DNA of 64,000 nucleotides. Origin: a virus (Duplodnaviria > Caudoviricetes). The stretch spans positions 26,107 to 90,106 of the IMG/VR virus record IMGVR_UViG_3300021255_001460. One strand, written 5' to 3'. The translations under genes and the position numbers were made by a program. Shown here piece after piece: positions 1,780-53,390 of this stretch (positions are counted from its first letter, which is position 1; each line of letters opens with the position of its first letter). The notes under the pieces were generated by a model. The model was not told the DNA's origin and made no database searches. It saw only the letters and a list, made by a program, of their open reading frames with translations.

Positions 1780-2385
1780 ATGCCCGTCACATCATTCTCA
1801 GAACACATCAACGTAAATGATCTGGGTAAGGCTGGCACATTAACCTTGTAGTGCCTCGACCTGTCTATGCGTCGTCCGGGTTTCGCCGTAATCGAATACG
1901 ACAAAGAAACCCGCGCCACAAGGGTTGTCGAATCCTCAGTGGTTGACAACAAATCCACCAAGGCTTTAAGAACGCACGGACAGATGTTGCTTGCTACTGC
2001 CGCCGAACTCAGGCGCTACTTCGAGAAATACAAAGACCGCAAACTGATCCTTGCCAAAGAGGATGCGGTTATGTCTTACCGCAACATTAACACCAGTGTA
2101 ACCATCAGCAAAGTACACGGTGTTGCTGACATGATTGCCGCCGAGTATGGCTACTTCGATTTTCAAGGTATTGGCACAACCGCAATCAAAAAGATGTTAA
2201 CTGGTCGCGGCGATGCACAGAAGGACGAAGTGGAGCGCGGCACACGGGTCTTCATCGGACAGGAGTACGAATACCAATTCGATGATGAGTCCGACGCTGT
2301 GGCTGTTGGGCTGGCGTGGCTTATTCAGGGCGGCTTGCTCAAGATGCCGAAGAACTGGAAGCTTCCAGAAAAAGAAAATGGTTGA
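1780..2385 (+). CDS. ruvC: RuvC-like Holliday junction resolvase with an in-frame TAG at codon 24 (1849-1851)
   Basis: SD GAGGTG and an ATG abutting the nrdG TGA. The frame reads ...GTLTL*CLDLSMRRPGFAVIE..., then KEDAV, IKKMLTGRGDAQKDEV and DDESDAVAVG. The first catalytic Asp (CLDLS) lies upstream of the ORF-track start at 1867. Confidence 0.85.
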
Positions 2386-9685: not shown

Positions 9686-9955
9686 ATGAATCGTAAAGAG
9701 GTTCTTGAAGCCGCACAGACTTGTGTTTGCGGTAACCGTGAAGATGACTATGGTTCGCCCGAAAACAATTTCGCCCGTATCGCTAACCTGTGGAACGCTT
9801 ACCTTGGGGTGGACAAGATCAAACCCCATGATGTGGCGGCAATGTTGGCTCTGCTGAAGGTGGCACGGATCGCTTCCGAAGGTCACGGCAAAGCTGATAA
9901 TTGGATTGATCTCGCGGGGTATGCGGCTTGCGGGGGTGAACTACAGGATGTCTGA
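9686..9955 (+). CDS. DUF6378-like phage protein
   Basis: REDDYGSPENNFARIANLWNAYL...KVARI...DNWIDLAGYAACG pattern. Confidence 0.75.
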   Translation: MNRKEVLEAAQTCVCGNREDDYGSPENNFARIANLWNAYLGVDKIKPHDVAAMLALLKVARIASEGHGKADNWIDLAGYAACGGELQDV

Positions 9956-19973: not shown

Positions 19974-20405
19974 TTACATATCAATAGGGGCTTCGTGTAG
20001 CTTTTCCACAAAGTCCGTTGGTACATGATTATGTCGTCCGCACTTCACGTACTGTTCGTACATGCGCTCGAGCGAACTTCTCGTATCCAGTGATATTGGG
20101 TTCTTCTTAACACCATAGTGGACGTATGCCCAAGTCAATTTTTCGTTCTGTAGCGTAGCTGTCTGCTCGTCGGTCTGTGCCAGCCGCCCATCAATCTCAT
20201 CAAGCCGCTGAACAATCTTGTCAATCTTCTCATCAATCGATTCAATGCGTCGCTGTGCTTCAAGCTTGCGCTCTGCTCTTTTTAACACCCAGTCATGAAC
20301 GGCCTCAAACGTTTTAACAGCGCCAACGACTACGCCAATCTAGGCAATTACTCCTACGAAAGCACCCCACCCAGAAGTGAGCCACTTAACTGCTTCCTCT
20401 CCCAT
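19974..20405 (-). CDS. Holin/haemolysin-like membrane protein with an in-frame TAG at codon 22 (20340-20342)
   Basis: ATG at 20405 reads MGEEAVKWLTSGWGAFVGVIA*IGVVVGAVKTF..., in frame with the track ORF 19974-20288. Confidence 0.8.
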
Positions 20406-20427
20406 TGGTGTCACCCTACCTTATCTT

Positions 20428-27246: not shown

Positions 27247-28332
27247 TTACCGCATCAGGCCATCAAAGGTGATGGTAAGTTTGGACAAGCTGGCATTTCC
27301 AGATCCGCTCTGCCCGGTAATGTTCTGCGTAGACACAATGAGTTCATTCATCTTGCCGACCAGACAAACATCGCCCTTAGTTGCTGGCATGTTCGCGTTG
27401 ATTGTACAAGAGCCGCCATCATCAGCTACCGCCAGAATCTTTCGCCAAGCGCCCTGTACGTAAATGTAACTGCCTACATCTTCTGGGAAAAACTTCGCGG
27501 TTGTTTTCAGCAAAGCAGATCCTTGAGCGCAGATCACATAAATGTCGCGCCTGTACGGGAAGCAAGGCTCAAGATTGATGTACCCTTTGTCGTGGTATGC
27601 AAACGCATAGTTCGAGCCAACCGTGATCTTCTGGTACTTACTGTCGATGACCAGATCCTGACCAGAGGGCAACCCGACAATTTCGCACGTATCATTGTTG
27701 GCGCTGTTTACGATCACAAGTTTACGGCCTGTCGGAATTGTTCCGCGCACAGTAATGGTCGCCGGGGTTGGCTCAGTGCCGGGATTCCACACAAGCTTTG
27801 TACCCATTGCAGTTGACACGGCTGGGATCATGGAGTGGCGAAGTATGCCGCAAAAAGATTCGATGCGGTACTCGTCTACCTCGTTGTCAGTGAGTTCCAA
27901 CGTGTTCATTGTGCCGAATGGATAATACGCCGTCAGGTTGAGCGTGATTGTGCCGCTATACACTGTGAGCAGATTACGGTTCGTGTGTTCCTGATAGCGG
28001 TCGCCAGTGGGCAGTTTGCTAGGCCGCACCATGTAGGTGATCCAAGGGCGCTCGTCAAAAACCAGTTCGCCCAGTACGCCAACGTGAACCCACTGGTAAA
28101 TCTTGTCAAGCTGTGCATCGGTCAGGTCTTCAAAGTAGCAGTACAAGCTGAAGTCCTTTTGCTGAACGGTCGCCCCATTATAATAAGCGCCGGGAAAGTT
28201 TGTTACTGTTGCTGTGTTCACTTTGTACGGTGTGCCAGCATCCAGCAATGTCTTGGAATTGGGTATATAGGTCTATCCCATCTCGGTACAGTGGATGCCG
28301 CGAAAAGTAAACCCCATCACATCCGCTTTCAA
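27247..28332 (-). CDS. Distal tail (Dit)-like protein with an in-frame TAG at codon 20 (28273-28275)
   Basis: Reads MKADVMGFTFRGIHCTEMG*TYIPNSKTLLDAG..., in frame with the track ORF. GFTFxGxH is the usual Dit N-terminus, and the gene follows the tape measure gene. Confidence 0.85.
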
Positions 28333-28673: not shown

Positions 28674-31600
28674 TCAGTTGAATCTGATGCCGCCAACAGA
28701 CATTCCCTTCGACATATCTGCCACAATGGAATCCTTGACACGGGTGGCAACTTCTTCAAAGTCCGCATCATCATTCAGGGTGTCAACCTGTACGATAATG
28801 TCGCCCACATTAATTGTGTTCGCCGTAGTGTTTGTGCCAGCCAGACCGCCAAAGGAAGGAAGCTGGAAGTGCATCATGCCGATGGTGTCGAGCATATCGT
28901 TCAGCGCCTTCAAGCTGTTGGAGCGGTCGGCGTTGATCAGCAGTCGAGTCAGTTCCGCATCGTTGATACTTTCCGGGTTCGTCTTTGTGCCGTCGAGCCA
29001 AGCATAACCTGTGCGGTCAATCAAGCCGCCAGATGCATAAGCACGATGTGTATTACCCATTGCACGAGCCGCCACAGAAGCAACAGCCGACACAATGTTT
29101 GTGCTTGTGCGTTCAACCGCTTGATTTACCATATTACTAAGCCACCCGCCACCGGAACTCCCGGACGAATTTGCGTTGTTGGAATTTGTAAACCGCGAGA
29201 ATGCTGTACTAACTGTTTCTGGATTCGCTTGGTTAACTGTCCGGCTAATACTACTCAGGAAGCCACCGCTACCAGAACTACCAGACACAGGCGTTGTGTT
29301 AACACGATCCTGCGTCTTTCTCGGAATATTATAAGCACGAACATAGTCAGCAGAAACAACACCGCCACCGGGCAGATTCTTGTTACGCCAATTCACACAT
29401 TCGGTCTGACTTGCTGGGCCATAATACCAATACTTGTCATCCACAACATAGAATTGCCCATTGCTATCAGCAAGCATAAACAGGTCGCTACCCTGTCCAA
29501 GATGGTTAATTGTTCCAGAACGGATAGGCACTTGAGAAGTTGTCGGTTGTCCATTGCCTCCAGATCCTCCTCTGCCTCCACCGCCGCCAGATCCACCAGT
29601 CGCAGATGCCGCCGCCGCACTAGCAGAAGCCGCCGCAGACTGTACCTGACTCAATGCCTGAAGCGCGGTATTGGTGAATTCCATCAACTGCTCTGTTGGG
29701 AACATATCGATGTATGCTCTTCTCAGATTCTCAATAGCATCCTGCCAGCCCTGTGTCATCAGTTTCTGTGCATAGCTATTGGCTTCAAGGAACTCCTGAC
29801 TGTTCTCCTGTAGGAACTGTATGATGTAGTCGCCGCCCTTGGAGATGATCTCTTCAACCTCATCCCAGTTGGTCTTAATGATGCCAAACATTTTTTCAAG
29901 AGTTTCTGTCCAACTATCAGAATACTCTTTCTGCATGTTGGCGGTCGCCTTAATATACTCTTCGTCGTTCGCTTTAAGCCACTCGAGGATTTCGGTCATA
30001 GACATCTTCATGATATTGTTGACTTCTGCCTCAAAGTTCCTCGGATCTTTCAGCAGTTCCTCATAGTAGCTTTCGATGTAATCCGCATAGTCTTCAAGAG
30101 ATTCAACCTTTTCTGTGATAGCTTCCTGCTGGGCTTCAACTTCCTGTTCAGCCGCATCCCAAGCGATTTCTTCCTGAAGTTCCGCAATCTCTTTGGCAAT
30201 CTTCTGGGCATCTTTGGCGCGGGTCGGGTCAGCAGAAATACGAGCGTACTGTGCCTGTAAGTTGGACAGTCGCATCGCTTTGTCTTCCTGTTCAGCAAGC
30301 TGTTTGCGCTTGTTCAACTGGTTGGTCAGTTCGGAAGACTCTTTGTTCAGCGCCTTGATACGGGTGTTGGTGGTTTCAAGGATCTCGTCGCGCTCTTTCT
30401 CATAACGCTTCATGACCACTTCGAGGATCTTTTCTTCCACCTCACGCGATGCTTCAAACGCTTCTTTCTCGCGTGCTTTCCGGTCTTCGATTGCCGCATT
30501 GATGGTGTCGCGCAGGTCGCTTTCCATCTGCCAGATCTGTTTGCGGTATTCCTTGATAGCCTTTTCGTTGGCCTTGATCTGGGCGGTGTTCTGAAGAATG
30601 GCTTTGTTATAGTCGGCGTACTTCTTTTCAAGTTCGGTCAGGCGCGATGCAACGGAGTCATAAACTTCGCTGTTCGCATCTGTGCTGGCGAGTTCGGCTT
30701 TGGTTTCGTCAATCTTGGATCTCAGCTGATCCATATTGCTCTGGTAAACCTCAGACTGTTTTGCCAGCCACTTGTTTTCTTCGGTCAGAGTATTGATTAC
30801 GCCAGTGAGATAACCTTCGTCAGCCCAAGATTTTTCAATAATGCCAAGTCGGTCGAGCAGATCTTTAATGGCATCGATCTCATTGTCGATACTATCAAGA
30901 AAGAGTTTTTGTCTCCTACTTGCGGCTTCTTCGGCTTTCTGTGCTTCTTCAGCGGCAATTTCTTCGGCAGTCTTTTTAGTACCACCACCGCCTCCACCGC
31001 CACCTCTCTTGCCAGTGGTTGTCGCTGTTTCGTTATTATTTTTCTTACTACTTGTTGCCGATGCGGCTTTTGCGGCAAGACCTGTTAACCTACTAGTCGC
31101 GCTACCACCACCGCCGCCATTCACAGTCGCAGTCACCAGTCCATTAGCATCAACACCAATCCTCACGCCGTTCAAAGACATAGCCTTGTTCAACAGATTG
31201 GCAAGCGCAACCTCTGCTTCGGTGGCTGTGGATTTCATTCTGATAAAACCGTTTGTAAACGATGACGGGTCAAATCTTGTGCCAGCCATGTTCACCAAAG
31301 CCTGTGTTAAGACTTGGATGGATGCTCGGACTTGTTCGGTTTGCCCGTTCAGAATCTGAAGCGCAGTGTCAAGGTTATTTTTGACAGAATCGGCAGTCAT
31401 ACCAGTTACGGATGCCAGAAGCGAATATGCACTGGTCATTTCCTTGGTATCAGCCCCGGCATTCGCAGTGACATAATCCAAAGCTTCATATGCTCGTCTT
31501 AACTTGTCGGACTGGTCAATCATCTTTGCCATCGCTTCGGTAAATGTACCCTGATCTTCACCAGCCGCACTAAAAGCTGTCGCATACTGTTTGATAATCT

Positions 31601-34600
31601 GTCCACTTGCACCAAGCTTATTTAAATCCATCTGAGCAATCTGCTTGGCGAATCTTGACAAATCCTCTTCGCCATCTTGTAGTGCCTTACGCAGATCTTC
31701 GATAAAATCGTCGGTAATAACACCAGCACTCTTCAAAGATTTCTGCGTTGCTTCATCAAGTTCATCATAAGCCTTAATCAACCCACGGGCTTCTTCTGGC
31801 GACTTCATGGCTTCAATGATCTGCTGATAAGAATTAATCGCCACACGACCAGAGTTTACCCACTGCTGGTTGACGGTATTGAGCGCAGTACCCATACGCT
31901 TGGTTGCGTCCTCAACACCCTGACTCATCTGGGTAGATACGGTACTGAAGTCGTAATTGTTAATCTTCTCCTGAAGCTGATCAAGCCACACAACCAGCGG
32001 ATGATCCTCGCCAAGATATTCACGCATCATATCAATCGACTCGAGCCATGCGTTCAGCTTTTCGATAAGCATCGTATAAATGCCATCGAGATTACCTTCA
32101 ACATCTTCGGTATCGATTTTAAATTCAGATGCAAGAAGTTTTTGCGCTTCCTGTAATTCCTTGGCAGAAGCAATACCATCGCCCTGTGCTTCTGAAATCA
32201 GTTTCCATGCATCGTACAATCTTCCAAGTTTTGCCGCCCCAGCTTCCGCATCCATTTGTAGCGGCACAAAACTTCCAATCTCATCGTTGCGGTGTTCAAA
32301 GAGTGCATATAATTCATCGACAAATTCGCCAGCATCATTTAGTGCCTCGGCCTCTGCATTATGAACATCAGCTATGGCGGTCGAGAAATCTGTCGCGCCC
32401 TGTACCCAAAGCACCTGAAGCTTACGGATAAAATCTTCGGTCAATCCGGTCGCGCTCAAGAAGGTTTTCTGCTGTTCTTTTGTGAAGTTATCATAAACTT
32501 CAAGCACAGCCGCCACACCTTCACGAGAACCAAGACTTTCAGCAAATTCTCCGAAGAAGTCCACATTTGCCTTACCTGTGGTATTGTTCGCGGTTGCCGT
32601 CATCAGAGTGGAAAGGTTATTCAGACCGCCGTAATTCTGCGACTGAGTTTTAACCGCATCACCAAATGATATGCCAGCCAGTTCCTCGAATTGGTCGATC
32701 AGTACTTGTAGATCTCCAAGTGTTGCGCTATCTGGGGCAATCGAGTTAACTATTTCTGAGAATTCGGTTAGCTTTTCTTTTGCTCCATCAACCTTCAGAC
32801 CAATCAAGCCAAAGACTTCATCAAGATGCTGTTCCACATATTCCTTATCCAGCCCAAGAGCATCGGCAATTGTTTTGTACCTTGCCTCGTCCGCTTCCTT
32901 ATTTGCAAGATGATCTGGCGCGGTGAGTTCCTGATATGCCTTTGCCGCCTCAATGATCTTATTGTAGTCCTGACGGATTTTTTCAAATGCCGCCGTATAC
33001 TCTACTTCCTTCTTCGGGTCGAGACTCAGCGTAAAGGCTTCGGCAAGAGACTTATTATCAGAACCCATCTTACCATACAGTTCGAGGCGGTACTCATTCA
33101 TCTGCTTGATGAACTCGTCAAAGTTTACTTCGCCATGTTTGAAAGAAACTTCCAGCCCCTTGATCCAGTCATCCGTAATACCAGTCATGGACTTGAATGT
33201 CTTGAGTGTTTCTTCATCCATTGAGCCAAAAGCACGAATCAAAGCCTCCGCGCCAGAACGATCCTGTAATGCTTCGTTCATGATACGCCATGCATCTTCG
33301 ACATCTTCGGTATCAACCGCAAACTTATCAGTGAAGACATTCAGGTAGCTAAGAATCTCGCTTGTCTGATCCTGAAGTTCTGCGTTGTGTTTTTCTGCGA
33401 TAGTGTAGAACTCTGCATTATCCAGCAGATCATTCATGTCGTCGATAAACTCAGCCACAAGACTGTTTTGATCGTAATCTTCAGAGGCAGTAAATGCATC
33501 GTTCAGTGCTTCGACAGAATCAACAGTCTGATTATACTTCGCAACCAAGACATCCAGCGCTGGTTCAAGGTTGTTCTTGAGATTATCCGCATCAAGTCCG
33601 GTAACAGTAGATAGTGTCTTATAAGCTTCTTCAAGTTCGCTACCAGACAAAGCATCTTCCTTGATATTCTTGTATGCTTCCCATGCCTTAACCAGTGTGG
33701 CAAAATCAGCTTTCTGACCTTCCATCAATGGATACAATTCAATGATATTCTGGTTGCCGCCAATAGTATCACGATTATCAAAGATGTCGCTATAGCCTTT
33801 GAGGATGTCGCCACTCTTGGCACGAGCCGCCAGAGATTTTGCAGGACTTGCTTCCTCGTCCGGGTTCGCACCGTCAATCGCGCCTTCGCCATCCTGCACT
33901 GCTTTATCGACAATATCGGCAACCTTCGCCACAGCAATCCCGTAGATCTCGCTATAGTCCTGTGCGATCCGATTGTATTCATCGACATCTGCCTGAGTTG
34001 CTCCTTCGGCAGTGGCTTTCTTGTAAGCTTCGTCAACCATCTGCCAACGGTCACGCTGGAGATATCCTGCATCAGCATATGCGTTCTGGGCATTCTGGCT
34101 GATCTGCGTAACAGCATCAATTGCCTGTCGCGCCCTTGCTTTCAGGCCGCTGTCAAGTGTGTAATCAAATCCATCAATTACGCTCTGATACTGCTGTTTG
34201 TATCCTTCTGCCAACCACTGTGGAACGTTATCCAGATCAAGGAAGTTGCTGAATATATCACGCACTTGGCCTTTCAGATCTTCCTTCTGCCGCTCCAGAT
34301 TAGCAAGGTCAGATACGGTCTGCATGTATTCTTCTTGAGCATAAGAGATATTGCTGTTATTCCAATAGTCCTGATTGTTGATGGCTTCATGATGTGCATT
34401 ATCTTTAATCCACTGATCAAATGTGCCGCCATAATTGAAAGCCATATTGCCGCTTGTCCAAAGATCATACTCCTTAAAGATCTTGGAGAAAGCGTCAATA
34501 TCAGTACCTCTCCTGAACCGTTCAAGAATATCCTCGCCGTATGCTTCCTGTAGTGCCGCCGCATAGTTATCGACGAACTGATTCATGTCGGTATAATAAC

Positions 34601-37385
34601 GTCCATGAGCAGTGGGAATTTGATCTTCCTGCCGCCTGATCTTACTGGCGGTTGCGTCGATGGTATTCAAGGTTTCATAAGCGGATCGTTTCGATGCCTC
34701 TTTTTGTAGCCGCAGATTTTCAGCAAGTGATTCGTTCAGCTTGTCTACCATATCTTTCTGGTAGCTATACTTATCACCAATATTCTGCACACCGCTGGTA
34801 ATACCGGGAATTAATCCTTCAAGAGCCGCATAAATTTCATTCAGCTTTTGCTGATCTTCTGCGGTCTTGTCTGTTTTCTTGGAAAGTTCTTCATACTCAT
34901 CGCGAAGTGCGACAATAGCGTCATTTTTCTGTGCAAATTTTTCCTGTTCTTCTCTTGCGTCACTAATACTATTTTTAATGTCAGACAAAGACTGATCAAT
35001 ATCTTCGCTACGGTCGGCAATTTCCGTTTCAGCACCGCCAACCATTCCGATCAAAGAAGAGAACAGCGCAATCATCGCACCAACACCAGCCGCAATCATT
35101 GCATACGGATGGCCTGTGGCGAAGTTAATAATTGTGTCGAACAAGTTAAATGATTTGTGAGCATTCAGGAAAGTTACTAAAGATCCAATCAGACCAATGA
35201 GAACCGGGAGCGCGATATTCAGTCCACCAACAGCGCTGGTCACATCGAGGAAATCGGTGGCAAGATCAAGCAATCCCTTAGTGATTTCTGGAATGTGGAA
35301 GGCACTATATAGTTTTTCCAACGAAGCCTGAAGTCTACCTTGTGCCGCCGTAACTGATTCCTGCCAGACCGCGAAAGACTCAGTTGTGGTATTGGCACTA
35401 TCCATTGCGATTTGATATAGTGTCAGTGCGCGAGAAACTCCGTCTACACTTTCAGCCGTCTTTGACAAATCTTCCATCAAGCCGATAAAGAAGTTCTGTC
35501 CACGAGTACCAGCCATAACTGTAGCCAGATAGGATCGGGTCTTGCTATCCATGTCTGCCCACTTTTCACCGATCTCGTTAAACACTTGGCCCATCTTACG
35601 CCACTTGCCATTCGCATCCATCAGAGCAATACCCTGTGTGGCAAGTGCTTTTGTAACATCATTCAGTTTGGTTTCGTCATCACTATTGAAACCAGTCTGC
35701 TTGATCTGACGCATACGTGCCAGAATTGTGTTCAGCGCAGTACCGATAGATTCAGGGGCAAGACGAGTACGCTCGGACAATGTGGCAATCCAAGAAGACA
35801 ATTGCTCAAACGATACACCAGCATCAGATGCAACACTCGCAACCTTCTGCATTGCGGTTGCCATTTCAGCACCACTCGTTGCGGCGGCGTTTCCCATTGC
35901 GATAAACGTATCTGTGACATGTTCGATATTAAGTCCAACTTGTCCTGTGGCATCATCAACCCAACCGGAATAACCGTTCAGAGTTGCAGTCAAAAGTTCT
36001 GAAGCTTCGTCAAAATTCATCTTGGTAACCTTTGCGAACTCGGTTACCCATTTAAGTCTGTCGTCAACTTCATCATCACTCAAGCCCTGACGATAGAATG
36101 TAATTGCCGCTTCAGCAATCTCTTTGCTACTAACATTCATCTCACGAGCCATATCGCGATACTTAACAGCCAGTTCGTCTGCGGCTTGTTGGTTCATACC
36201 AGTAACCACACGAATTTCGTTCATCTGGTCATAGTATTCGTTAGCATATTGGGTTGCTTCCTGCCACATTTTTCGCAGAAGATTTTGGGCGGCATGAACA
36301 CCAATCTGCACCAATGATGTAAGAATCTTGTCAGCCAGCGTGGTGGTGACCGTTAGTTCAGAATTCGCGTCGGCAAACTTACCCCTGAGATCTGTGGCAT
36401 AATCGCCTGACTTGCGAATATAGTCAGCTTCCAGTTGAGTATTATCAGCGCCAGCATCAACAAGCGCATTAATCTCGGCTTCTACACCCCTCAACTGTTG
36501 TGCATAATGATAAGACTGTTCAATAGCCGCAGAACGTTTTTCTTCACTCGAAGATTCGGAATGTCCAACAGCATCTGCGGATGACATTTTCTTAAAGTAT
36601 TCAAGACGCTGTTTGTATAGTTCGTTAAGCCGCCTCTGATTGGCGATCTCATTTTGTGTAGCAGTTGTGTCGGCTTGCTTAGCCCTGACCAAAGCGGCTT
36701 CCTGCTCATATGTTCTGTTCAGCTGTTCAAGTGCATTGCGCTGTGTTTCAGTCAGAGTGATGTTCCGGGATCTCTGCTCATACTCCGCACGTAAAGCATC
36801 TGCCTGTGCATGTAAGGCCACAATAGAATTTGCATCTTTTGATGGATCAAGTTTTGCGGCCTGTAATTCATATGAGTTGATTTGCTTCTGGAGACTCAAC
36901 AACTGCTGATATTGTTCGACTTGCCTTTTGGAGGCTTCAGTTGCGGCCTTTTGATCGGCAACCTGTGCTTTGATTTGCTCAGTACGAGTCTGTCCTTTTG
37001 AAACAAGTTCCGCAAGTTGAAGCTTTTCTTTGTCATTGAACTTGATGCTATCTACAATCAGATTAACAATAGCACCTAACTTCTCCGCTCTTTTTTGTAG
37101 CGCTTGCAGTTCGCTGGCATTTGTCTCAGCACTTAACCGCGCATTCTGAGCAGATATGTTATTAAGTTCGGACAAAACCTTCTTGAGTTCATTATAAGCG
37201 ATAGTGGCTTCCTTGGCAGACTTTGCCGCGCCAGACTGGTTACCCATATCAGCGATTGCACCATCAACGCCACTGATCTACCCTTTGATTTTGTCCATCT
37301 GTTCTGCGGTGAACGATGTTGCACTAACTAGCGCATCATGTAATGGTTTCCAGTTAATGACTAGTTCGCCAACATTAACAGCCAT
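28674..37385 (-). CDS. Tape measure protein (~2903 aa) with an in-frame TAG at codon 36 (37278-37280)
   Basis: Strong SD GGGGAGGG and ATG at 37385; MAVNVGELVINW...DKIKG*ISGVDG is in frame with the 2857-aa track ORF. TP901-type TMP core (AITFYRQGL, ATSGAEMATAMQK, ESIGTALNTILAR). Confidence 0.92.
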
Positions 37386-38980: not shown

Positions 38981-40803
38981 TTACCAGTCAACTGTGCTGG
39001 CGCTGGACTTGGTTACCATGTCGCCCTTGTTGTCGAAAGGCTCAAAAATCATACGGTTGGTACGCTTATCAGCACGTTTCGGGTCGATAACAGAGAAGGT
39101 AATGCTGTTGGTTGCATGAGACTTGTCATTGATCTTCAACATGATTCGCTACGTCATGTCCGCTTTTCAGCCGCTATGTGTCACCACATATGATGAGACT
39201 ATATCTTCACCCTCGCATCTCAGCGTAGGGGTCTTCCCATTTCAGCTTCGCTTGAAGCTTACTCTACTCGCTTCTTCCTGCATATCCTTGTATGCATTCT
39301 GCTTTCGATAGTCGTTAGGCTTTTATAAAACATCATCAACATATTCCCAATGGTAACCGCCACATTTATATCCGGTCTTACAAGCCCTCGTCAGATTGCC
39401 TCGCGACACATTATATTTTGTAGCGGCATCAACCATAGTATAGAAAACTTCGTTGGTTTCAATACAACGAATTGTTCGATGACAAGTAGCAATTACTTGT
39501 TCAACCGTCTTTGCTTTGAACTCAGCATCCTGCCATCTTGCTGTTGCCTGTTCAGATCTTCGTTTGCGTTTTTCTGGATCTTTCCAAGCACTCTTCATTC
39601 TCCGCTTCATATCATCTTTATACTGCGGATCACTCCATTGACGAATCAAATTGTCAATGTTTGGAATGTTCCCGCCGCCACTTATATTGTAGCCATACTG
39701 ATGATCTGTTGCGTTGAATTGAGTAATCAGTTCAATTTCCTTGCGGCAAGCTTCGTCGTATGTCAACCCGGTATATAAAATTTTGTGATCAAAATTTTCC
39801 CACCCATATTTCTGAATTGCTTTCCAGAACTATGTGCAAGACTGATATCGTTTACCATCAGATCCCCAACGATGTGTTGGTTTCTGACAAGTAATACCAA
39901 TATACACCTTACCATTAATACGATTGGTATGTTGATAAACTATATACTTCTTATTCACTTGTACCCCTTAATAACAAGTGATGATGTTTTACTTCAGCAC
40001 GGTAGGTTTTCTTTACACTGCAACCTATGGTGTAAAGACGTTCCCCGTTTAAGGAAGATATTTTTCATAAACATTACTGTTTACGCAACCTGTTTTGTTA
40101 AGCTGTTGTCGAATCCGGGAGCGGCGGTAGCACGTACCTTGTAGAACAGCCAGTGGAGCATACCCTTGAGAGTAGCTTCGGAGCAGTCCGTGCCGCTGGA
40201 GTACAGAGGCCAGTGAGCAGTCAGAGAACCCTTTGCCATCGTGCTGTCGGTGTACTCGTTCAGTTCGTAGCCATTCACAACCCGGCGGGTATAGAATACA
40301 CGGAACTCATCGCCAACCGCAACATCGGAAGCATTGAGTGTGATCTCGGTCTTGCCAGCAACTTCAGCAGTAGAAGCAGTGATAGCAACCTTGAACTTGC
40401 CTTCTGCGGCGGTTTCCTCTTCGGTTTCCTCAAGTCCGCGAATATACACAGAACCAGCTTCAACCTCGAACGGCAGTACGACCTTCGGGCCAGTCTCAAC
40501 CTGAACCAGCGTGGCTTCATCAACACCAGCGTCAACAACTTCGATTTCAGCGTTGTTCGCCATCATGAAGATATCCATCGTGAACAGAGAAGAAGCGAAG
40601 GTAATTTCAACAGTCTTATCAGTTTCGATGTAAGCCAGCGGCAGAGACTTCTGACCACCAGTGATAGTAACGACGTTATTGGTACGACTGATAGATGCGG
40701 TGTTCACTTCGTCAAAATGGAAGTGTACACCATCACAACGAGTAAAGTCCTAGTCAGGGTTATCAACAATATAACCCTCATACTTGGGAATATAAATCGC
40801 CAT
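38981..40803 (-). CDS. Major tail (tube) protein, exons 40803-40101 and 39126-38981 (~282 aa), with an in-frame TAG at codon 18 (40750-40752)
   Basis: SD GGGAGG; reads MAIYIPKYEGYIVDNPD*DFTRCDG.... Splicing gives APGFDNS-Y-KSHATNSITFSVIDPKRADKR...VDW*. Confidence 0.85.
39127..40100 (-). mobile_element. Group I intron (974 nt) carrying a homing endonuclease
   Basis: P1: exon CAGCU pairs with IGS GGUUG. Core elements TTAAACGGGGAACG, AACCTACCGTGCTGAAG, CTAACGACTATCGAAAG and GAAGATATAGTCT; terminal G at 39127. Confidence 0.92.
39323..39958 (-). CDS. GIY-YIG homing endonuclease (C-terminal NUMOD1-like domain) with an in-frame TAG at codon 43 (39830-39832)
   Basis: GTG start; YIVYQHTNRINGKVYIGIT...RW...CT*FWKAIQKYGWENF...EIELI...YGYNISGGG; C-terminal CKTGYKCGGYHWEY. 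Confidence 0.88.
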
Positions 40804-41369: not shown

Positions 41370-42056
41370 TTATATAAACGAATCCCAGTCAATCGTGTCG
41401 TCAGGCACATAACCCCAATCGGTAAATGCGTCTGGGGCATCATAATTATTCCTATGATCAACACTGCTGTGAATAGCCATATTATTCAACGTCGCCGCAA
41501 ATGCTTGTGGTATAAAACTAGCCAGTGCATTTTGTAAAATATCCTTCGCCTTGTGTTCCATATTCTGTGCGGCATCTTCGATATAATACTGTCCTTCTTC
41601 TGGCAAGATTTTCATATAACCAAGAACATCATGTGCAGATTTTGACTTGCTCAATTCCCTTCCAGACAAATCGTGATTCCATACTTCCTGACCCGGTTTC
41701 GTGAGCAACGTGCCATCCTCGTCTGTATTACCTTCTTGGATCACAAGACTGCGTTCCTTTACATATGGCTCAACAGCATCTCCAAGACCAGCACGAATAG
41801 TAATCACAGCATCATTCATCTCTGGCTTGAACGTTTTGTTGGAATCATCAATTGCTTGTTGGACACTGCGTACCCAATCCTGAGTCTCCTTCACACGTTC
41901 AACACCATGACTATTTGTATACGATCTATGTTCAAGGTTCATTGTGTCGGCGGCAATCCGTACAGTCTTCTTCAACTCTTCAGCAAACTCATTTTGAATT
42001 TCCTGACATGCACCAGCCAGTCTATTTGCCACGGCATTAACAACACTTTCAGCCAT
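41370..42056 (-). CDS. Putative neck/tail-completion protein
   Basis: Position in the head-tail joining block; ATG overlaps the upstream gene end. Confidence 0.5.
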   Translation of the reverse strand: MAESVVNAVANRLAGACQEIQNEFAEELKKTVRIAADTMNLEHRSYTNSHGVERVKETQDWVRSVQQAIDDSNKTFKPEMNDAVITIRAGLGDAVEPYVKERSLVIQEGNTDEDGTLLTKPGQEVWNHDLSGRELSKSKSAHDVLGYMKILPEEGQYYIEDAAQNMEHKAKDILQNALASFIPQAFAATLNNMAIHSSVDHRNNYDAPDAFTDWGYVPDDTIDWDSFI

Positions 42057-42888
42057 TGACAACACCACCCTGAACACGTTTGCCGTACACAACAATCACA
42101 CCGTGTTTCTTATGAATATCCACCTCGGCAGTAGATATATCAACCGCACGATATGTGAACTTATGGATAACAAACTCATCGTCAATCATGAGTTGCTTCG
42201 TCTTATCATTCCACTGGAGCGAAACCGTAATCAAGTCGTTCGGCGTAATACCCGGAATGGCAGTACTTGCAGAATAGTCAGGTCTGCCTTGGTACAACGT
42301 CCAGCTTGCCGGGATGTTGTCCACAATGACCAGCCGCCCACGTTTGTCCAGATCCACGCCCGTCTTATGAATCACAAATCCGTTCTCGTCGGTGGGCGCT
42401 TCATACTTCCGTGTAAACGTCAGGTAGTTGTTGCACTCTGTACTCTGCGTCGCCAGATTGTTCGCGTGGTTCATTACGTTCCAGCTACAGAGGAACACAA
42501 CACCATCTTCGCGGATGACATAATCACCCTTGTGGATCTCCAGTGTCCGCTCCACTTTCAGGTTGGTGGACATATCGGAGTTGCCGATCTTGGATTTCCA
42601 GTCAATAGGTGTTTGCTGACCGCGAAAGAAAAGCCCCGGAGTCTGGCGGTTGTACCAGTCATGAATCATCTCGAATGTATAATTTACACCGGGTTTATAT
42701 TCAAGCAGTTCGTTCTTCCAGTCAGAATACAGGGTTTCCGGGTCGAGGAATCTGTCGCCATTGTATGCCTGTTGATTGTAGGTCACACTGGCTTCGACTT
42801 CCTCTTTTGTGCCGATACTTATATGTGAACCCGCTGAAGTAACGTAGTCGGGCTACTCACTCCTGCGGACTGCAAATACCTTGCCCAT
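42049..42888 (-). CDS. Putative head-tail joining protein; probable start 42888 with TAG at codon 12 (42853-42855), alternative GTG start 42786
   Basis: SD GGTGAG and ATG read MGKVFAVRRSE*PDYVTSAG...ASVTYNQQAY..., in frame with the track ORF. Confidence 0.6.
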
Positions 42889-43198
42889 CTGTCTCACCAC
42901 TCTCGTTACGGAGTCGTAGATTATCAGGAAGGCGCTCAATCTCTCCTGCCTTGTCCAGCAGTTTGTGCTTGATGGCACAGTACTTCGCCCACGTATCATC
43001 CGTCCAGTCATTCTTTGACGAACCGTTTGTGGCTCGATAAATGACATCTTCGACATCCGTGATCAATGTCCACAAATTGTTGCGGAAGATGTTGCACCAC
43101 TCGCGCAGAGGATACAGATCGTTCGACACTTCCTTCATGTCGCGATCATGTTCCACAACATTGACGTATACTTTCTGCATGATCCTTAATCCTTTCAT
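42857..43198 (-). CDS. Hypothetical head-tail region protein
   Basis: Coupled ORF in the morphogenesis block. Confidence 0.65.
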   Translation of the reverse strand: MKGLRIMQKVYVNVVEHDRDMKEVSNDLYPLREWCNIFRNNLWTLITDVEDVIYRATNGSSKNDWTDDTWAKYCAIKHKLLDKAGEIERLPDNLRLRNESGETDGQGICSPQE

Positions 43199-45639: not shown

Positions 45640-46851
45640 TCAATAAATGACATGTTTGACCATAGCGGAAACGGGGTTGTTTAATTTGGCATCCGGTAAG
45701 GTCATTTCGGAAACCAGCATTCCGACCTGTTCGTCGGGCTTGGCTTCGAGATTCATTTCAGCAAGCAGTTCAAAGTTCGCGCTGTTCACAGCTTCTGCAA
45801 CCTTCTCAGCATTGAGATCCAGCCCAGATTTTTCCGCAAACAGCCTTGCCTTGCCCACACGTTCAGCCAACTCGAGAGCGGCCTTTTCAGCACGGAGGGC
45901 TTCAAGTTCTGCCTGAAGCTGGTTAAGAGTTGCAAGCTGTGCTTCCAGTTCGCAAATCCTATTCTGCTGTTCACTGATCTGATTCATTGCACGAGTAAGT
46001 TCATCCTCATCGTCGGGTTTGTCCGGTTCATCCACTTCAGGTTCTTCATGTTCCGGTTCTTCCGGTACGATGGGATTGTCTTCGGCGGTCGCTTCAACAG
46101 TTTCAGCATTCGCATTTTCAGCATTCGCGTCAGCGGCATTCACGTTAACTTCGGTTTCAGCGTTTGCTACTTCAGCGGCTTCAGGTTTAACTTCCTCTGC
46201 AACAGTCTGCATGTTTTCGTTTTCCATTGGTTGACTCACTTCCTTGTCGTCTGCTTTCTGCTCCGCGACAAGATCCAAAGCAGTTGCCTCGTCAAACGCA
46301 GGATGAGTGACCACACACATTCCGGTCAGCACATTCTGCGGATTCGCGTCAATATACATGACATCGCCCACACGGATCACACCAGACGGATACACGTATT
46401 TGATCTCGCACGAAAAATTCAGCATTCCAAGTCGGTACAGTTCAAGTACCGCATCACAAATCTGCTTTTCCCTCTTGGGTATTCGTGCTTGTCCATAGAG
46501 GCTCACACCATACTGATCATTGACTTTCTTGAAAGTGATAAAGCTTCCAATCATTGTCGTTCCGTATGTAAGCGTCAGTTTGTCGTACATGTGTGTCAGT
46601 TGATCAAACTTCCATGCAGTCAGATTATCAACATCGGCGTACAACGGAATGCCGCACAACATTTCAGCATTGGCAATAACCGAATCAATAAATGCTTCCG
46701 TTACGCCCTCACCATTGTTGTTGGGTTGCGTACTCATCATACGAAGGTCAATGACCATCATCGGGTTGTTTGGATCTCTTGTCACAGATATGTCAGACGC
46801 TTGCAAATATAGTGTTTGAGAAACCACGTTTGTCTGAATCGTCTGATCCAT
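45640..46851 (-). CDS. Prohead protease/scaffold-like protein
   Basis: N-terminal beta domain (NNNGEGV, GIPLYAD, HPAFDEATAL), acidic linker, coiled-coil C-terminus. Confidence 0.7.
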   Translation of the reverse strand: MDQTIQTNVVSQTLYLQASDISVTRDPNNPMMVIDLRMMSTQPNNNGEGVTEAFIDSVIANAEMLCGIPLYADVDNLTAWKFDQLTHMYDKLTLTYGTTMIGSFITFKKVNDQYGVSLYGQARIPKREKQICDAVLELYRLGMLNFSCEIKYVYPSGVIRVGDVMYIDANPQNVLTGMCVVTHPAFDEATALDLVAEQKADDKEVSQPMENENMQTVAEEVKPEAAEVANAETEVNVNAADANAENANAETVEATAEDNPIVPEEPEHEEPEVDEPDKPDDEDELTRAMNQISEQQNRICELEAQLATLNQLQAELEALRAEKAALELAERVGKARLFAEKSGLDLNAEKVAEAVNSANFELLAEMNLEAKPDEQVGMLVSEMTLPDAKLNNPVSAMVKHVIY

Positions 46852-46940: not shown

Positions 46941-48548
46941 TTATCCAGTTTGTGCCTGAGATCCTTCAGGGTTACTTGGTTTGGGTTGTCTTCCTGTCTG
47001 GGAATTGGTCGGGTCGCTCTGCCGCACAGAAACATCAAGTGTAGGTCTGCCACGCTCCGCTTCCGCTTCGCTATCGTTGCCGCCAGAAGAATTACTGGTC
47101 GCGCCAGTTTCCTCAACAGAAAGAATCTTGTCGATGCCGTTAGCCTTTTCATCCTTCTTGCGCTCGACTTCCTGCTTCATATCAAATCCATGAGTCTGGA
47201 GCAATGTTTCGCGGCTAACAACACCTTTGTCATACAGTGTGCGGCAGATCTCCTGAAACTGTTTACTTCCGTTCAGATCAACTGGTGGGAAGGTAAACTC
47301 AGGGATCTTGTCTGGCGATCCGTGAGCAATACCCCGGAAACCCGGTTCGTTCAGCCGCCTGTTGATCTTGTTCATCATGTTGCAGAACAGATCACGGGCA
47401 ACCTTGATCCTGATAGCCGCCGTCTGCATACTCACCTGTGCTGTTGCAAAGGTTGAGGATGAAGATGTGTTGCCGCTCACCATGATCTCGGAAATACCAC
47501 CAGCCGCCAGAATCTGCTGGTTCACACTGTTGTACTTTTCATAATGGAACAGTTCGTCAAGGTCGGGCTGAATAAAGTCGGCCTGTGCCCAAGTGTTTGT
47601 TACCACAAGAGCAGATCCGGTCATGGCTTTCTTGAAGCCTTCCTTAATGGCGTTCAACTGTTCGTTATTCGGTAGCACCTGTCCGTCCTTGTCGCCATAG
47701 CGCACATGAACGAAAGACCGCATACCAAGCCGCAAGTTGGCATCTTCCCAGTCGCTGATCTTGCGCTTCTTTGCCAGCGGCATTAAAGCGGAAGCAATCA
47801 TCGGCACTGAGTATTTCTGCCACTCTTCTTTCGGCTCTTGTAATGTGAACGTGTGTCGGGGATCAAGCTGAACCCAAGGCATACTGTTTCGTATAGCCAT
47901 CGCAATCTCGGGCGGGTAACCACATAGCCTGACAGAAAGATCTTTATCATCGATCACATTGTTGGCGGTGGTGAAACTATCAAAGCCAAGATCGTTGACT
48001 ACCGACATGACATCGTACTCGAGAACAGGTTCTCCACCGATTGCCACGCCACAAATCCTTATATTATGAGGCGGCAGTGTAATTAATCTGCCGTCATCAA
48101 AAAGATAAGAATACACATTGGAATACTTGAAATACTGCGTAAATACAGACAACCTGTAGTTCGTGAAGTTGTGCTGTTTGTAATACGTCATGTATTTCTT
48201 CTTGGTCGCCTCGTCAGCGCCCACAAGCTTCGGATCATCGGCACAGGCGAAAGGTATGTAAACCTCGCGCAGAATGCCACGGTAGATCGAATCATAATCG
48301 TAGTAGTAATCACTCAGTTTGAACAGCCTGTTGATGTTGTGCTGTTTGTCTCTGAGGATTGCGTCATAATCTGTATCTTCGATCTATCCAACCTGTGCGA
48401 CCCGGTTCTCGGAGAAAGTCAGCGTGATATCGTTGTCACTCACCACGCCAAGATCTTTCCGTGCAGTAGGCATCCCAGTGGTATTTGTGCCAGTGCTGAT
48501 CTGAGGTGTTCTTGTGAACAAACTCGCCAGCCTCGGGAATATTGCCAA
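46941..48548 (-). CDS. Portal protein (~535 aa) with an in-frame TAG at codon 55 (48384-48386)
   Basis: SD GAGGAG and TTG at 48548; reads ...SENRVAQVG*IEDTDYDAILRDKQHNINRLFKLSDYY..., in frame with the track ORF; directly downstream of terL. Confidence 0.82.
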
Positions 48549-48567: not shown

Positions 48568-50313
48568 TTACATGTAATCGACCAGAACGATGCATTCGTC
48601 TGACGATCCACTTCTATATTTTCTAGTCCTCTCGTCTTCAAGATCCGCAATAAAAGCGAGTCCGTAAGACAATGAGGAATAACGGTCTTTATGCTGGGTG
48701 GATTTGGCAGTGCCAATAATCGGGTAACCGCTTGCGCTAGGCCGCGACACAATGTTGCCCATCTCGATCTGGAGCGCATCTGCTTCGTACAGGATTGCGA
48801 TCTCCTCGGTAGTTAACTTGTGGCGGTTATCCTCGCCCTCTTCAATGATTGTGCCGTCCTTCGATACGGTAACACGTTCGGTTGAAGCATCAGCGATCTT
48901 GCCGTTAACCAAGCGCCGCGACTCAACTGGCAGTTCCAGCGTACCCTTCTCAAGCGCAATCGTGGTCACGTTCACACACTTCTGGTTGAACGCATTGTTT
49001 GCATCGATTGCTCTTAACAGCGGCACAGCGTTCTGAATGGAATAAGGATCTGTATCAAGTACCAGCGGCGGGTACTCCTTGCCAGTATTTGGATCAAGCC
49101 AAGGCTCGGAAAGGAACTGAGGGAAAGCGTTGCCCACACCATGATGGTCGAATACGACTTTAATGGTTCGCGGGAACTTCACCAGTAGCCGCCTCAATTC
49201 ATCTGCCAACATGGTCAACGTGTAACCGTGATAGGTTCGCATGTAAACCAGCTTTCGCTTGATGAATCCTTCGCCAGCATCAATCAGCTTGATAATACTG
49301 ATTGCGGTATTGTCAGCAGAGGTCGCACCTGACACAGCAATATCGATTGCTATTACGTAGTCGGCCTTGCTTCCTGCTGGCATCGCCACTTCCACTTCTT
49401 TTAATGTGCGGCACTTCTGTGTCTTCTCATACGGGAACAGACTGCCCGACTCCGCACCAAGGAAGATGGACTCATATTCTGTCATCCACTTCTCTTCGGT
49501 CATGCGCTCTTTCTGATCCAAGAACCACTCTCGCGAGGTGATCCCGATTCGTGCAGAGCATTCCCAGTTCAGCGCACAGGCGAACACTCCGTCGCTCCGT
49601 TTGGTAGGATCGGCGATTCGCTTGAGTGCGTCGGTAAACTTATCGTAGAAGTGGTTGCTCTTCAGACAGGCTGATGTGATACTGCACACCGCAGAAGGAT
49701 GATCCTTGAAGCCGTGCTGAATTGCCACGCCGCGAGTTGTGTTCAGAACGGGCAGTGCAACAGCTTCCCAGTCTGCCGCATTGACTTCCGGGGCTTCGTC
49801 TATGATTAACAGCTTGGCACGGTTGCCACGGAATGTGCCGATGGAGAACGATTCAATAATCGAACCATTCTTCAGCACACAGCGCCCCTTGGCTCGTGTT
49901 AAGCTGACAGGACGGCGACCGCCGCTACAATTGATCTCACGCAACACGTTTTCGTTGCGAATGAAATCAGACTCGATCTTACGCAGAACCAGTGTCGCCT
50001 GTTCGCCAGTGCCAGAGATAACAGCCACCATGCTCCCGGGCCACAGCACTGCGTATGCGAGGCAACATACTGCCACCACCCAAGTCTTGCCAGCGCCACG
50101 GTTGTTGACCATCAGAACTTCTTTGCCGTTGCCAATCATCCGCGCCTGAATCTTTTGGGTGTCTTTTAACTTTATCTTGAAGTACTGTTCGATAAAGACA
50201 TCAAGATGCGTTCGCCAGTAATGAATCAGGAGTGCGACCGCCTGTGGATCTTTGATCTCATGACCGTTAATGCTCGGCTTAATCTTGCCGCTCTATAAAG
50301 CTTGCGAAATCAT
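48568..50313 (-). CDS. terL: Terminase large subunit (~581 aa) with an in-frame TAG at codon 7 (50293-50295)
   Basis: ATGA overlap with the upstream gene; MISQAL*SGKIK...YWRTHLDVFIEQYFKIKLKDTQKI, Walker A RGAGKT, Walker B LLIIDEA, nuclease IAIDIA and HKDRYSSL. Confidence 0.92.
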
Positions 50314-51783: not shown

Positions 51784-52065
51784 CTCAAATATTTAAATGC
51801 CGGGTGTGCAGTAGGCATATGTATTTCGATATGCTTGGAATCACACGAAGCCCGCGCGGATTTCACACCGTTGTTAAGCAGATAACGTACAACTCGTCCA
51901 GCGTCTGCCTCGACTCGCTGACCGGGTCACCTACGAAGTCACTTGCTCCGCATCTCTCTTAGCCGTTGTACGTGTCGGAGTTCGGCCTCCGGGCGTTCCG
52001 CTTACCGGGTAGCTATTGTCTTACAGTCTTTCAATACTTGACTACCGACATTAAATAATATTATG

Positions 52066-52163
52066 TACGGGGAGTGGGATTCGAACCCACAAGAATCAGG
52101 TGAAAGTGCCTGATTTTACTGGGATTTTAGAAATCCTTGACTTTGCCGTTTGCCTATCCCCGC
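52066..52163 (-). tRNA. Amber suppressor tRNA (anticodon CUA), class II, leucine-type body
   Basis: GCGGGGA TA GGCAAACGGCAAAGTC A AGGAT-TTCTAAA-ATCCC [30-nt variable arm, stem AATCAGG/CCTGATT] GTGGG-TTCGAAT-CCCAC TCCCCGT A. G1.U72, A73, A15:U48; CCA is not encoded. Confidence 0.9.
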
Positions 52164-52196
52164 TTGAGCCGCAACAAATATAATTTGCGGCTTTGT

Positions 52197-53390
52197 TTAT
52201 TTCACCTTAATTGGGTACACGCACCGTCTGCCATACCCATTTTCGATCACCATCGCAGTAGCACCCGGACATGCCCCACGCTCCAAGCTTTGTGCGTACT
52301 TATCAATGCCGCACAAAGAAGGAACACGGACAATGGTCGAGTGACCGTCTGGTGAAGTACCAACCGAAAACTCTGCGTCGTTGTGGAGATGCCCAACCAC
52401 AAAGTAATCAATTGGTTCACCATATAGGTTGATGCTGTCACGAGCCAGATCAGTAAGTGTCTTGCCACTGATACTGTCGCCATGCATCAACATAAATTTG
52501 TAGCCGCACACTTCGACCAGTTTACGCCGCTCACAATCGGAACAGATCTCAATATTGTCTATTCCATCCAGCCGCGCTTTCAAGTACCAGATAACGATAC
52601 GCTCGAGGTTCTCATCCTCGAATTCGCGCGATTTGGCTCGGAGTGGTCGGACTTCAGAATGGTTGCCGCTCACAGCGTAAACCTTAATCTGAGTTCCAAA
52701 TCTGGCTAAGTGTTTCAGCCACAACGCAAGGTGTTCGCCAAGTTTCATTACCTGATCGACAATGCCGTACTCAAGTCGCGTCAGTTGACTTTGCCGCAAC
52801 ATTCCATCAATCAGGTCGCCTACGAGGAAGATGTTCATGGTGGCAATCTTTTCTTTTCCAAGAATCAACTCAGTCTGCATCGCCACTTGCAACATCCGGT
52901 GAACGAATATATCTGAGTTGTACACGTTCATCTTCTCGCCACGTAAGCCGCGCACTTCAATGTCCGCACCAAAGTGAAAGTCTCCAAGGGCAAGAACAAG
53001 TTCTTTGGATTCAGCTTTGGATTCGACTTTGCTTTCAGCTTCGCGACTGGCGGCTTCAAACTCTCCCCGCAAGTCAGGCATTGCTTTCGCGGCTCGTTCA
53101 ATAGCGTTTGCTAATTCTGTTCGCCGCGCATCGCTTCTGCGGTAAGCCATAACTTCATTACGAAGATCACGGAGTGTCTGCTCTTTCGCGAAGTTGTCGC
53201 CTTCGCACCGCATCACTGCATCCGCAAGCATTACTCCAACGCCAGCCTTCCGCAGTGTATCGGGGCTGACATCAAGGTGGTACTTCTCTACAAGATCAGC
53301 CCACTCATATTCTGTCAGACCATTCTTCTTTGCCACAATATCTTCAACGAGCAAAGCCTGATCTTCTCGTGTAAGTTCTGTCTAAAGCAT
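52197..53390 (-). CDS. Calcineurin-like metallophosphoesterase with N-terminal helical domain; in-frame TAG at codon 3 (53382-53384)
   Basis: LGDFHFG, VGDLIDG, SGNH, MHGD and VGHLH motifs; SD GAGGT then ATG CTT TAG ACA GAA..., in frame with the track ORF. Confidence 0.8.

Follow-up and report, generated by a model that had tools for sequence, protein, structure and literature searches.

The closest described systems are those of gut phages using genetic code 15, in which TAG is read as glutamine and the phage carries its own tRNA-Sup(CUA), as reported for crAss-like, Lak, and phAss-1 phages (bioRxiv 10.1101/2021.08.26.457843, PMC9523058, PMC10607447, PMC11210395). The phage analysed here shares with them a phage-encoded CUA tRNA and in-frame TAG codons in late genes, among them terL, portal, and tape measure, with recoding proposed to time late-gene translation. 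It differs, however, in that TAG aligns with leucine, the tRNA has a leucine-type class II body, the TAG codons are sparse (about one per gene) and 5'-proximal, and no theta ribozyme was found beside the tRNA. Of the features by which code 15 is recognised, in-frame TAG codons in conserved genes together with a CUA tRNA are present, whilst alignment of TAG with glutamine in homologues is not, with leucine scoring best both across the clade and in the phage itself.

Amber codons read as leucine are known outside the phages. In chlorophycean and Scenedesmus mitochondria (NCBI tables 16 and 22) TAG encodes leucine, the same meaning as proposed here, and UAG reassignments have reportedly been described in ciliates; such organellar or nuclear reassignments are genome-wide, whereas the present case concerns a virus-borne suppressor in a standard-code host. 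In E. coli, the amber suppressor supP (Su6) is a tRNA-Leu with its anticodon changed to CUA, and a leucine tRNA body bearing CUA remains a substrate of leucyl-tRNA synthetase (LeuRS) because LeuRS does not read the anticodon. The leucine body and the CUA anticodon are shared by supP and the tRNA described here, but supP, a laboratory mutant of a chromosomal gene, has an ordinary variable arm, whereas the phage tRNA is a natural gene, has a 30-nt arm, and is matched by TAG codons that were deliberately placed. A long variable arm, and in some cases CUA, is also shared with the allo-tRNAs found in metagenomes and phages (PMC5389517), although these combine 8/4 or 9/3 acceptor/T stems with serine identity, in contrast to the canonical 7/5 arrangement and A73 seen here.

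The DNA analysed, termed the window throughout, covers the right-hand 64 kb of a linear IMG/VR viral contig of 90,106 bp, whose completeness CheckV puts at only 78%, a limit on the case made below. Gut metagenomes of sheep and bovine origin from at least 14 studies contain the phage, with the exact TerL core protein found on more than 20 contigs, nine of which were fetched and share 94–100% nucleotide identity over the late region. Relatives comprised 34 related loci gathered through TerL, together with the full contigs of five larger relatives. The distant TerL matches are to Clostridium and Bacillus phages, which is only a hint of the host, and the host is not established. Under table 11 the contig is densely coded, indicating that TAG is not recoded wholesale, and the TAG density of 0.86 per 1000 codons is the lowest of the clade (2–6 in relatives), a usage sparse enough that screens based on coding density would miss this phage.

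We propose that this phage encodes a functional amber suppressor tRNA that inserts leucine, a reading to which we assign a probability of roughly 0.75, with both charging and expression inferred in the absence of aminoacylation, expression, or proteomic data. The phage literature that could be searched describes TAG as glutamine and TGA as tryptophan, with suppressor isotypes predicted as glutamine, tryptophan, isoleucine, or tyrosine and never leucine. A prior mention is not excluded, but relative to that literature, where glutamine is reported, a TAG that most likely encodes leucine through a phage tRNA is new. What this phage adds is the sparse one-per-gene layout, the oversized variable arms, and the allelic turnover of the suppressor gene.

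The CUA tRNA and its identity elements

The tRNA gene lies at 52066..52163 on the minus strand, the late strand, 1.75 kb upstream of terL, and encodes a 98-nt class II tRNA with a leucine-type identity set and no encoded CCA, as supported by Rfam, by its fold, and by strain variants. It matches RF00005 at 44.8 bits against a gathering threshold of 29 (E = 2.7e-6 for the 64-kb window), with model positions 1–71 matched in full and the 28 extra nucleotides placed in the variable region, and thus satisfies family membership: a cloverleaf with a 7-bp acceptor stem and D, anticodon, and T arms, scoring above gathering. This is the only tRNA match in the whole 90,106-bp contig. The anticodon CUA (52128..52130, minus strand) occupies positions 34–36 of a 7-nt loop, UUCUAAA, and the acceptor carries G1.U72, C2-G71, and the discriminator A73. 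The core comprises U8, A9, A14, A15, G18G19, A20a, and U33, and the T arm is standard, with the loop UUCGAAU. The 30-nt variable region (52091..52120, minus strand) consists of five unpaired nucleotides, a 7-bp stem, an 8-nt loop, and two unpaired nucleotides plus U48, and so meets the class II definition of a variable region of at least 10 nt with its own stem (PMC7609411). The minimum-free-energy fold recovers the acceptor, anticodon, variable, and T stems (z = -3.7, with none of 200 shuffles as stable). An earlier note made from the letters alone had claimed a CUA tRNA at this position, CTA at 34–36 of a TT-CTA-AA loop, G1.U72, A73, A15:U48, a 7-bp variable stem, a 30-nt arm, and a place on the late strand upstream of the terminase, and each of these readings is upheld.

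ARAGORN made no call on this tRNA in its default mode, with introns allowed, or in tmRNA mode, and at a lowered threshold gave 43 mostly spurious calls with the window tRNA misfolded; the oversized variable region is the likely reason for the default miss, although this is an inference. Where ARAGORN does call CUA tRNAs it labels them tRNA-Pyl. Membership of that family, defined by a 3-nt variable loop, a small D-loop without G18G19, and an elongated anticodon stem (PMC7609411), is ruled out for the window tRNA by its 30-nt variable region, its G18G19, and its 5-bp anticodon stem. An Rfam scan found no theta or HDV-like ribozyme or other family flanking the tRNA; no intrinsic terminator was found near it, and the one weak promoter-like site is no more than is seen in shuffles.

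The E. coli LeuRS depends upon A73, the A15-U48 Levitt pair, G18G19, and A20a, and is indifferent to the anticodon and to the sequence and fold of the variable arm, with G73 acting as an antideterminant against LeuRS and C2-G71 as one against E. coli SerRS (PMC9976931). The window tRNA meets this set of A73, A15:U48, G18G19, and A20a, and also carries C2-G71. The lineage's own reference tRNAs (L009, L013) have A15/U48/A73 in tRNA-Leu, G15/C48/G73 in tRNA-Ser, and G15 in tRNA-Tyr, with A73 and U48 found in 17 of 17 CUA tRNAs collected from the clade and A15 in 16 of 17, across variable regions of 6–59 nt. The leucine body inferred in the earlier note, the serine and tyrosine features it set against it, and its statement that bacterial LeuRS largely ignores the anticodon are all supported, the last as stated for E. 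coli (PMC9976931). The same is true of its remark that no phage synthetase is visible, with no class Ia synthetase, LeuRS domain, or release factor found in the 78%-complete contig.

The fit to leucine is not perfect in the D-loop. In canonical tRNA-Leu, G18G19 follows A15 by two nucleotides (AAUUGG type), a placement not met by the window tRNA, in which the spacing is one nucleotide (AACGG), as in the serine tRNAs of the lineage. The 7-bp variable stem likewise resembles those of lineage tRNA-Ser genes, and since SerRS recognises long arms in a largely sequence-independent manner, the tRNA could in principle be charged with serine, making TAG serine, alone or mixed with leucine. However, A73 stands in place of the G73 of serine tRNAs, A15:U48 in place of G15:C48, the C2-G71 pair is the reported antideterminant against E. 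coli SerRS, and the five unpaired nucleotides preceding the variable stem are unlike those of serine tRNAs, all of which renders serine charging unlikely. Formal membership of the tRNA-Ser family (G73, a G2-C71-type acceptor, and G15:C48) is ruled out by A73, C2-G71, and A15:U48, with the long arm alone being serine-like.

The short spacing of G18G19 is un-leucine-like, but an identical D-arm occurs in tRNAs with the leucine anticodon UAG. Phage tRNA-Leu(UAG) genes (L068-L072, L064/L070, L073) have the same 16-nt D-arm, GGCAAACGGCAAAGUC, and the same T-loop as the window tRNA, with the L068 group also carrying G1.U72 and A73, although these genes differ in their leucine sense anticodon, their short variable loop, and their unrelated acceptor and anticodon stems. 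A pattern scan with the D-arm core gave 11 matches, seven of which carry the leucine anticodon UAG.

Bacterial TyrRS uses A73, U35, and a long variable arm, and a tyrosine-type suppressor like supF would therefore be compatible with the A73, U35, and class II architecture of the window tRNA, and also with a D-loop length near that of bacterial tRNA-Tyr. The lineage tRNA-Tyr has G15, in contrast to the A15:U48 of the window tRNA, and formal tRNA-Tyr membership (G34, U35, A73, G15) is ruled out by C34 and A15, with only A73 and U35 present. Together with the alignment evidence given below, this leaves a tyrosine suppressor very unlikely.

Two further observations concern tRNAs other than that of the window. 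A 92-nt class II tRNA with the same D-arm core is found at L066:624-692 and L067:6235-6303, in viral contigs of 62 kb and 164 kb, with A73, a 25-nt variable region, and the anticodon loop CUAGAAA, which ARAGORN reads as Ser(AGA), an anticodon that is odd for bacteria on a tRNA body that is leucine-like. Additionally, several clade CUA tRNAs have C33 (loops CCCUAAA or CCCUAAC), and one has G33 (AGCUAAA), in place of the near-universal U33 (L080:1556-1653, L078:4476-4573, L009:7454-7545, L026:6426-6513, L021:5434-5512, L077:4318-4445, L076:6002-6094).

In-frame TAG codons and their meaning

Judging from sequence alone, at least six genes, and probably ten, hold a single TAG within their first 3–68 codons. 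Those verified, each with a single in-frame TAG near the 5' end, are terL, portal, tube-like, Dit, neck-region, and RuvC-like genes. In terL (48568..50313, minus strand), the ATG overlaps the upstream stop codon (ATGA) and TAG is codon 7 (50293-50295); no further ATG, GTG, or TTG occurs until codon 59, which precedes the Walker A motif by only about 12 codons, and an N-terminal segment conserved in all relatives lies between TAG and codon 59. The portal gene (46941..48548, minus strand) starts with TTG, followed by residues that match the conserved N-terminal motif of relatives upstream of its TAG at codon 55 (48384-48386), with the PHROG portal match starting at residue 55. Each of these two TAG codons is preceded by the aligned start and followed by conserved sequence, and no canonical start intervenes after the TAG. 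Pfam gave no match for TerL or portal, and PHROGs matched both. Additional verified TAG codons are found in a neck-region structural gene without a family match (42049..43056, minus strand; TAG 42853-42855), in a tube-like virion structural gene (40081..40803, minus strand; codon 18, 40750-40752) and a RuvC-like resolvase gene (1780..2385, plus strand; codon 24, 1849-1851), in both of which TAG lies inside a conserved block, and in the distal tail protein gene Dit (27247..28332, minus strand; codon 20, 28273-28275), where conservation extends to both sides.

Four further genes are candidates resting on Shine-Dalgarno motifs and gene spacing, with no support from homology across the TAG. These are the tape measure gene (28674..37385, minus strand; codon 36 of 2903, 37278-37280), with a strong Shine-Dalgarno motif before the extended start; a metallophosphoesterase/exonuclease gene directly upstream of the tRNA (52197..53390, minus strand; codon 3, 53382-53384), with a Shine-Dalgarno motif before the ATG; a GIY-YIG homing endonuclease gene (39323..39958, minus strand; codon 43, 39830-39832), with lysine in distant homologues; and a small gene without a family match, of 146 aa (19974..20414, minus strand; codon 25, 20340-20342). 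Homology gave no confirmation for the TAG codons of the tape measure, exonuclease, and 146-aa genes.

The placement of these codons departs from a uniform distribution, with Fisher combined p values for 5' bias of 0.0015 when the six verified sites are taken and 1.8e-5 when all ten are. The median relative position of TAG is 0.11 here and 0.18–0.33 in relatives, compared with an expected 0.5, making the 5' bias a trend of the clade, although choosing the first start of each open frame may have inflated these figures, notably those of the relatives. Across 7–9 strains no variation is seen in the TAG codons of the exonuclease, terL, portal, neck-region, and tube-like genes, whilst neighbouring bases do vary. 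Since several essential genes hold one TAG near the start, the phage is predicted to require its CUA tRNA.

It remains conceivable that the tRNA is not responsible for expression of these genes, with the short 5' segments acting as leader ORFs followed by re-initiation, or with a host suppressor reading the codons, and the tRNA-like gene being a relic or serving another role. Several TAG codons do lie very near the start (codons 3 and 7), and no expression data exist. However, those of the tube-like, Dit, RuvC-like, and portal genes fall inside conserved protein sequence, and terL offers no canonical start between its TAG and the conserved N-terminal segment.

The meaning of TAG was assessed by reading each in-frame TAG as X and tallying the residue of homologues at that site, with a substitution table derived from the same alignments. 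In the 34 related loci, leucine is the consensus at 87 of 155 independent TAG site groups, with log-likelihoods of -338 for leucine, -409 for methionine, and -568 for glutamine, and each of the five relative genomes separately gives leucine when only the best-scoring frame at each place is used. A blinded control recovered the true residue for 14 of 14 sense codons. TAG matches the four real leucine codons tested both in its margin of 92 (95–117 for the real codons) and in its leucine-consensus fraction of 0.64 (0.57–0.68), and its frequency is about equal to that of the rare leucine codons CTA and TTA. On these alignments, TAG in the related phages appears to be a genuine leucine codon.

The sites of the window phage provide a smaller sample. 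Homologues have leucine at the RuvC-like site (three of three), leucine or cysteine at the Dit site, isoleucine (8), leucine (3), methionine (1), or valine (1) at the tube-like site, and valine in the closest relative at the neck-region site; those of portal (aspartate, glutamate, or threonine) and GIY-YIG are polar, two of six alignable sites that count against leucine. Log-likelihoods over the six sites are -17.1 for leucine, -17.5 for valine, -21.3 for glutamine, -23.8 for serine, and -24.6 for tyrosine. On their own these sites are modest evidence, favouring leucine clearly over serine and tyrosine, the only other bacterial class II identities, and over glutamine, but not separating it from valine, isoleucine, or methionine, with the choice of leucine over these three resting on the tRNA body. 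Serine, in addition to the objections raised by the tRNA itself, aligns with none of the TAG sites of the window phage, scores 6.7 log units below leucine there, and is outside the eight best-ranked residues in relatives; tyrosine scores 7.5 log units below leucine at the window sites and is unsupported in relatives.

Glutamine, whether inserted by the window tRNA or by a host factor as in the published code-15 phages, deserves consideration as the sole meaning of phage TAG recoding in the searchable literature. A few sites in relatives do align with glutamine, and in one strain a TAG has arisen from CAG. Against this reading, the tRNA has a class II body with A73 and is not of the class I glutamine type, glutamine scores 4.2 log units below leucine at the window sites and 230 below in relatives, and blinded CAG and CAA controls behave quite unlike TAG. 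We consider glutamine highly improbable.

The CAG to TAG change lies in strain L077 (L077:10769-12031, orthologous to window 45640-46851), at codon 132 of a 403-aa gene after portal, and is either a fresh sense codon (glutamine to leucine) or a nonsense mutation, with the same change inferred from split gene calls in one ENA assembly. It is the sole change of its kind in the strain comparison, which found no polymorphism between TAG and a leucine codon. The same 403-aa gene contains an indel hot spot at window 46019-46180, where replacements of 30–78 bp and small insertions distinguish the strains.

At window 39122-40102, a segment of about 981 bp containing the GIY-YIG gene is missing from other strains at the DNA level, with contigs of three runs joining 39121 to 40103/40106 across 7–10 different letters; the segment resembles a mobile insertion, placed at the 3' end of the tube-like gene. 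Elsewhere in the genome, at 7725-9770, 18 kb before the start of the window, two ORFs, of 332 aa and 341 aa, share a reading frame with a TAG and 18 nt between them, and an active suppressor could join them into one product of 681 aa.

An exchangeable cassette carrying the proposed suppressor

The tRNA and an adjoining hairpin form an exchangeable cassette of 161 bp (52035..52195, minus strand), at which near-identical strains carry unrelated CUA tRNAs. Type A strains (L075, L082) have a tRNA identical to that of the window, and type A' strains (L078, L080) have the window tRNA with 10–12 substitutions. Type B strains (L076, L079) have an unrelated tRNA of 93–95 nt with a canonical leucine D-loop and a 23-nt variable region. 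In the type D strain (L081), a 128-nt tRNA with a 59-nt variable region (40.8 bits in Rfam) is followed by an HTH gene, and in type E (L077, and probably also a 1,335-bp replacement in run X4) a tRNA of about 128 nt with a similarly huge arm is followed by an HNH gene. The allelic tRNAs at this locus are all A73/A15/U48, with variable regions of 23–59 nt. Rfam run at its gathering threshold does not pick up the strain variants or the allelic tRNAs, which were recovered by motif, ARAGORN, or permissive Rfam scans.

The substitutions in type A' are partly compensatory, with pairs 29-41 and 30-40 changed on both sides, G11.U24 changed to G-C, and, in L078, G1.U72 also changed to G-C, which argues for selection on the tRNA fold. 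The variable region is unchanged in L080 and has one change in L078, in its unpaired 5' part. Ten randomly placed changes would all miss 30 of 98 positions with a probability of about 0.03, so that conservation of the arm is only weakly significant, and among the strain variants the variable stem is conserved without covariation. Furthermore, the CUA tRNA is kept by every strain examined and is present in all five larger relatives, being the sole tRNA in four. Selection on the fold and this retention both speak against the tRNA being a relic or a bystander to the expression of the TAG-containing genes, and with the conserved sequence around the codons make that explanation quite unlikely.

Since the tRNA gene lies in an exchangeable cassette, near-identical strains use unrelated leucine-type CUA tRNAs for the same TAG codons. 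With the TAG codons invariant, the tRNAs different, and the leucine signature common to them, the assignment of leucine to the window tRNA is supported by functional equivalence. The type B D-arm is 86–90% identical to that of phage tRNA-Leu(UAA), and types D and E have a D-arm in common with the relative L021, whose CUA tRNA has only a 7-nt variable loop. The long arms consequently look like expansions upon leucine-type scaffolds.

No homologue of the exact tRNA was found outside the species by pattern scans of IMG/VR and metagenomes. A search of the first 34 related loci with nhmmer gave none, and pattern scans for a CUA tRNA with the window D-arm found none in IMG/VR and one chance, non-tRNA match in metagenomes.

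Several structural features of the locus were also seen. A hairpin with an 8-bp stem (window 52164-52196) separates the stop codon of the exonuclease gene from the tRNA's first base, and having no U-run it is not a typical terminator. A similar hairpin is kept in type B strains, and in L077 this position is taken by a different one; as hairpins recur beside allelic tRNAs, hairpin and tRNA may be one module. The variable regions of about 59 nt in the 128-nt tRNAs of L081 (107-234) and L077 (4318-4445) form branched hairpins whose stability does not significantly exceed that of shuffles, with the L077 arm holding a hairpin that resembles an anticodon arm, with the loop CUUAUAA. A group II intron domain (RF02004, 183 bits) is present at L011:20262-20457, in a related phage or provirus contig.

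Proposed mechanism and implications

In the mechanism we propose for leucine insertion, the tRNA would be transcribed at the head of the late minus-strand block, and host enzymes would mature it and add CCA. The host LeuRS would then charge it, reading A73 and the core of A15:U48, G18G19, and A20a whilst ignoring the anticodon and the variable arm, and hence tolerating an arm of 30 nt. The charged tRNA would compete with release factor 1 at UAG. As the TAG codons sit near the 5' ends of their genes, it may be inferred that full-length product would be gated, appearing only after the suppressor had accumulated, with unsuppressed ribosomes aborting after a short peptide. Such an arrangement would gate packaging, virion, and resolvase genes at the level of translation and at little cost.

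A broader reading, which we offer only tentatively and consider doubtful as a whole, is that in a clade of ruminant-gut phages TAG is a rare, 5'-placed leucine codon serving as a translational checkpoint, that unrelated leucine-type CUA tRNAs are swapped between near-identical phages within a hypervariable cassette, that their conserved giant arms, expanded to 23–59 nt and so outside what default ARAGORN and the gathering-threshold Rfam scan recovered here, are functional, and that the turnover of alleles reflects an arms race over the suppressor. Under this joint reading, the arms would serve as a shield against host defences that target tRNAs, as a handle for a phage or host factor, or as a timing device.

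Phage stop-codon recoding by TAG is currently annotated as glutamine (table 15), and prediction tools assume that table. If a widespread clade of ruminant phages does read TAG as leucine, its proteins are mistranslated or truncated in databases. Natural leucine-type suppressors that tolerate arms of 30–59 nt would also be of interest for tRNA engineering and for the limits of acceptance by LeuRS, EF-Tu, and the ribosome. Furthermore, the layout of one TAG near the start of each gene would make the late-gene-timing hypothesis directly testable, with a single tRNA gene controlling about ten named genes.
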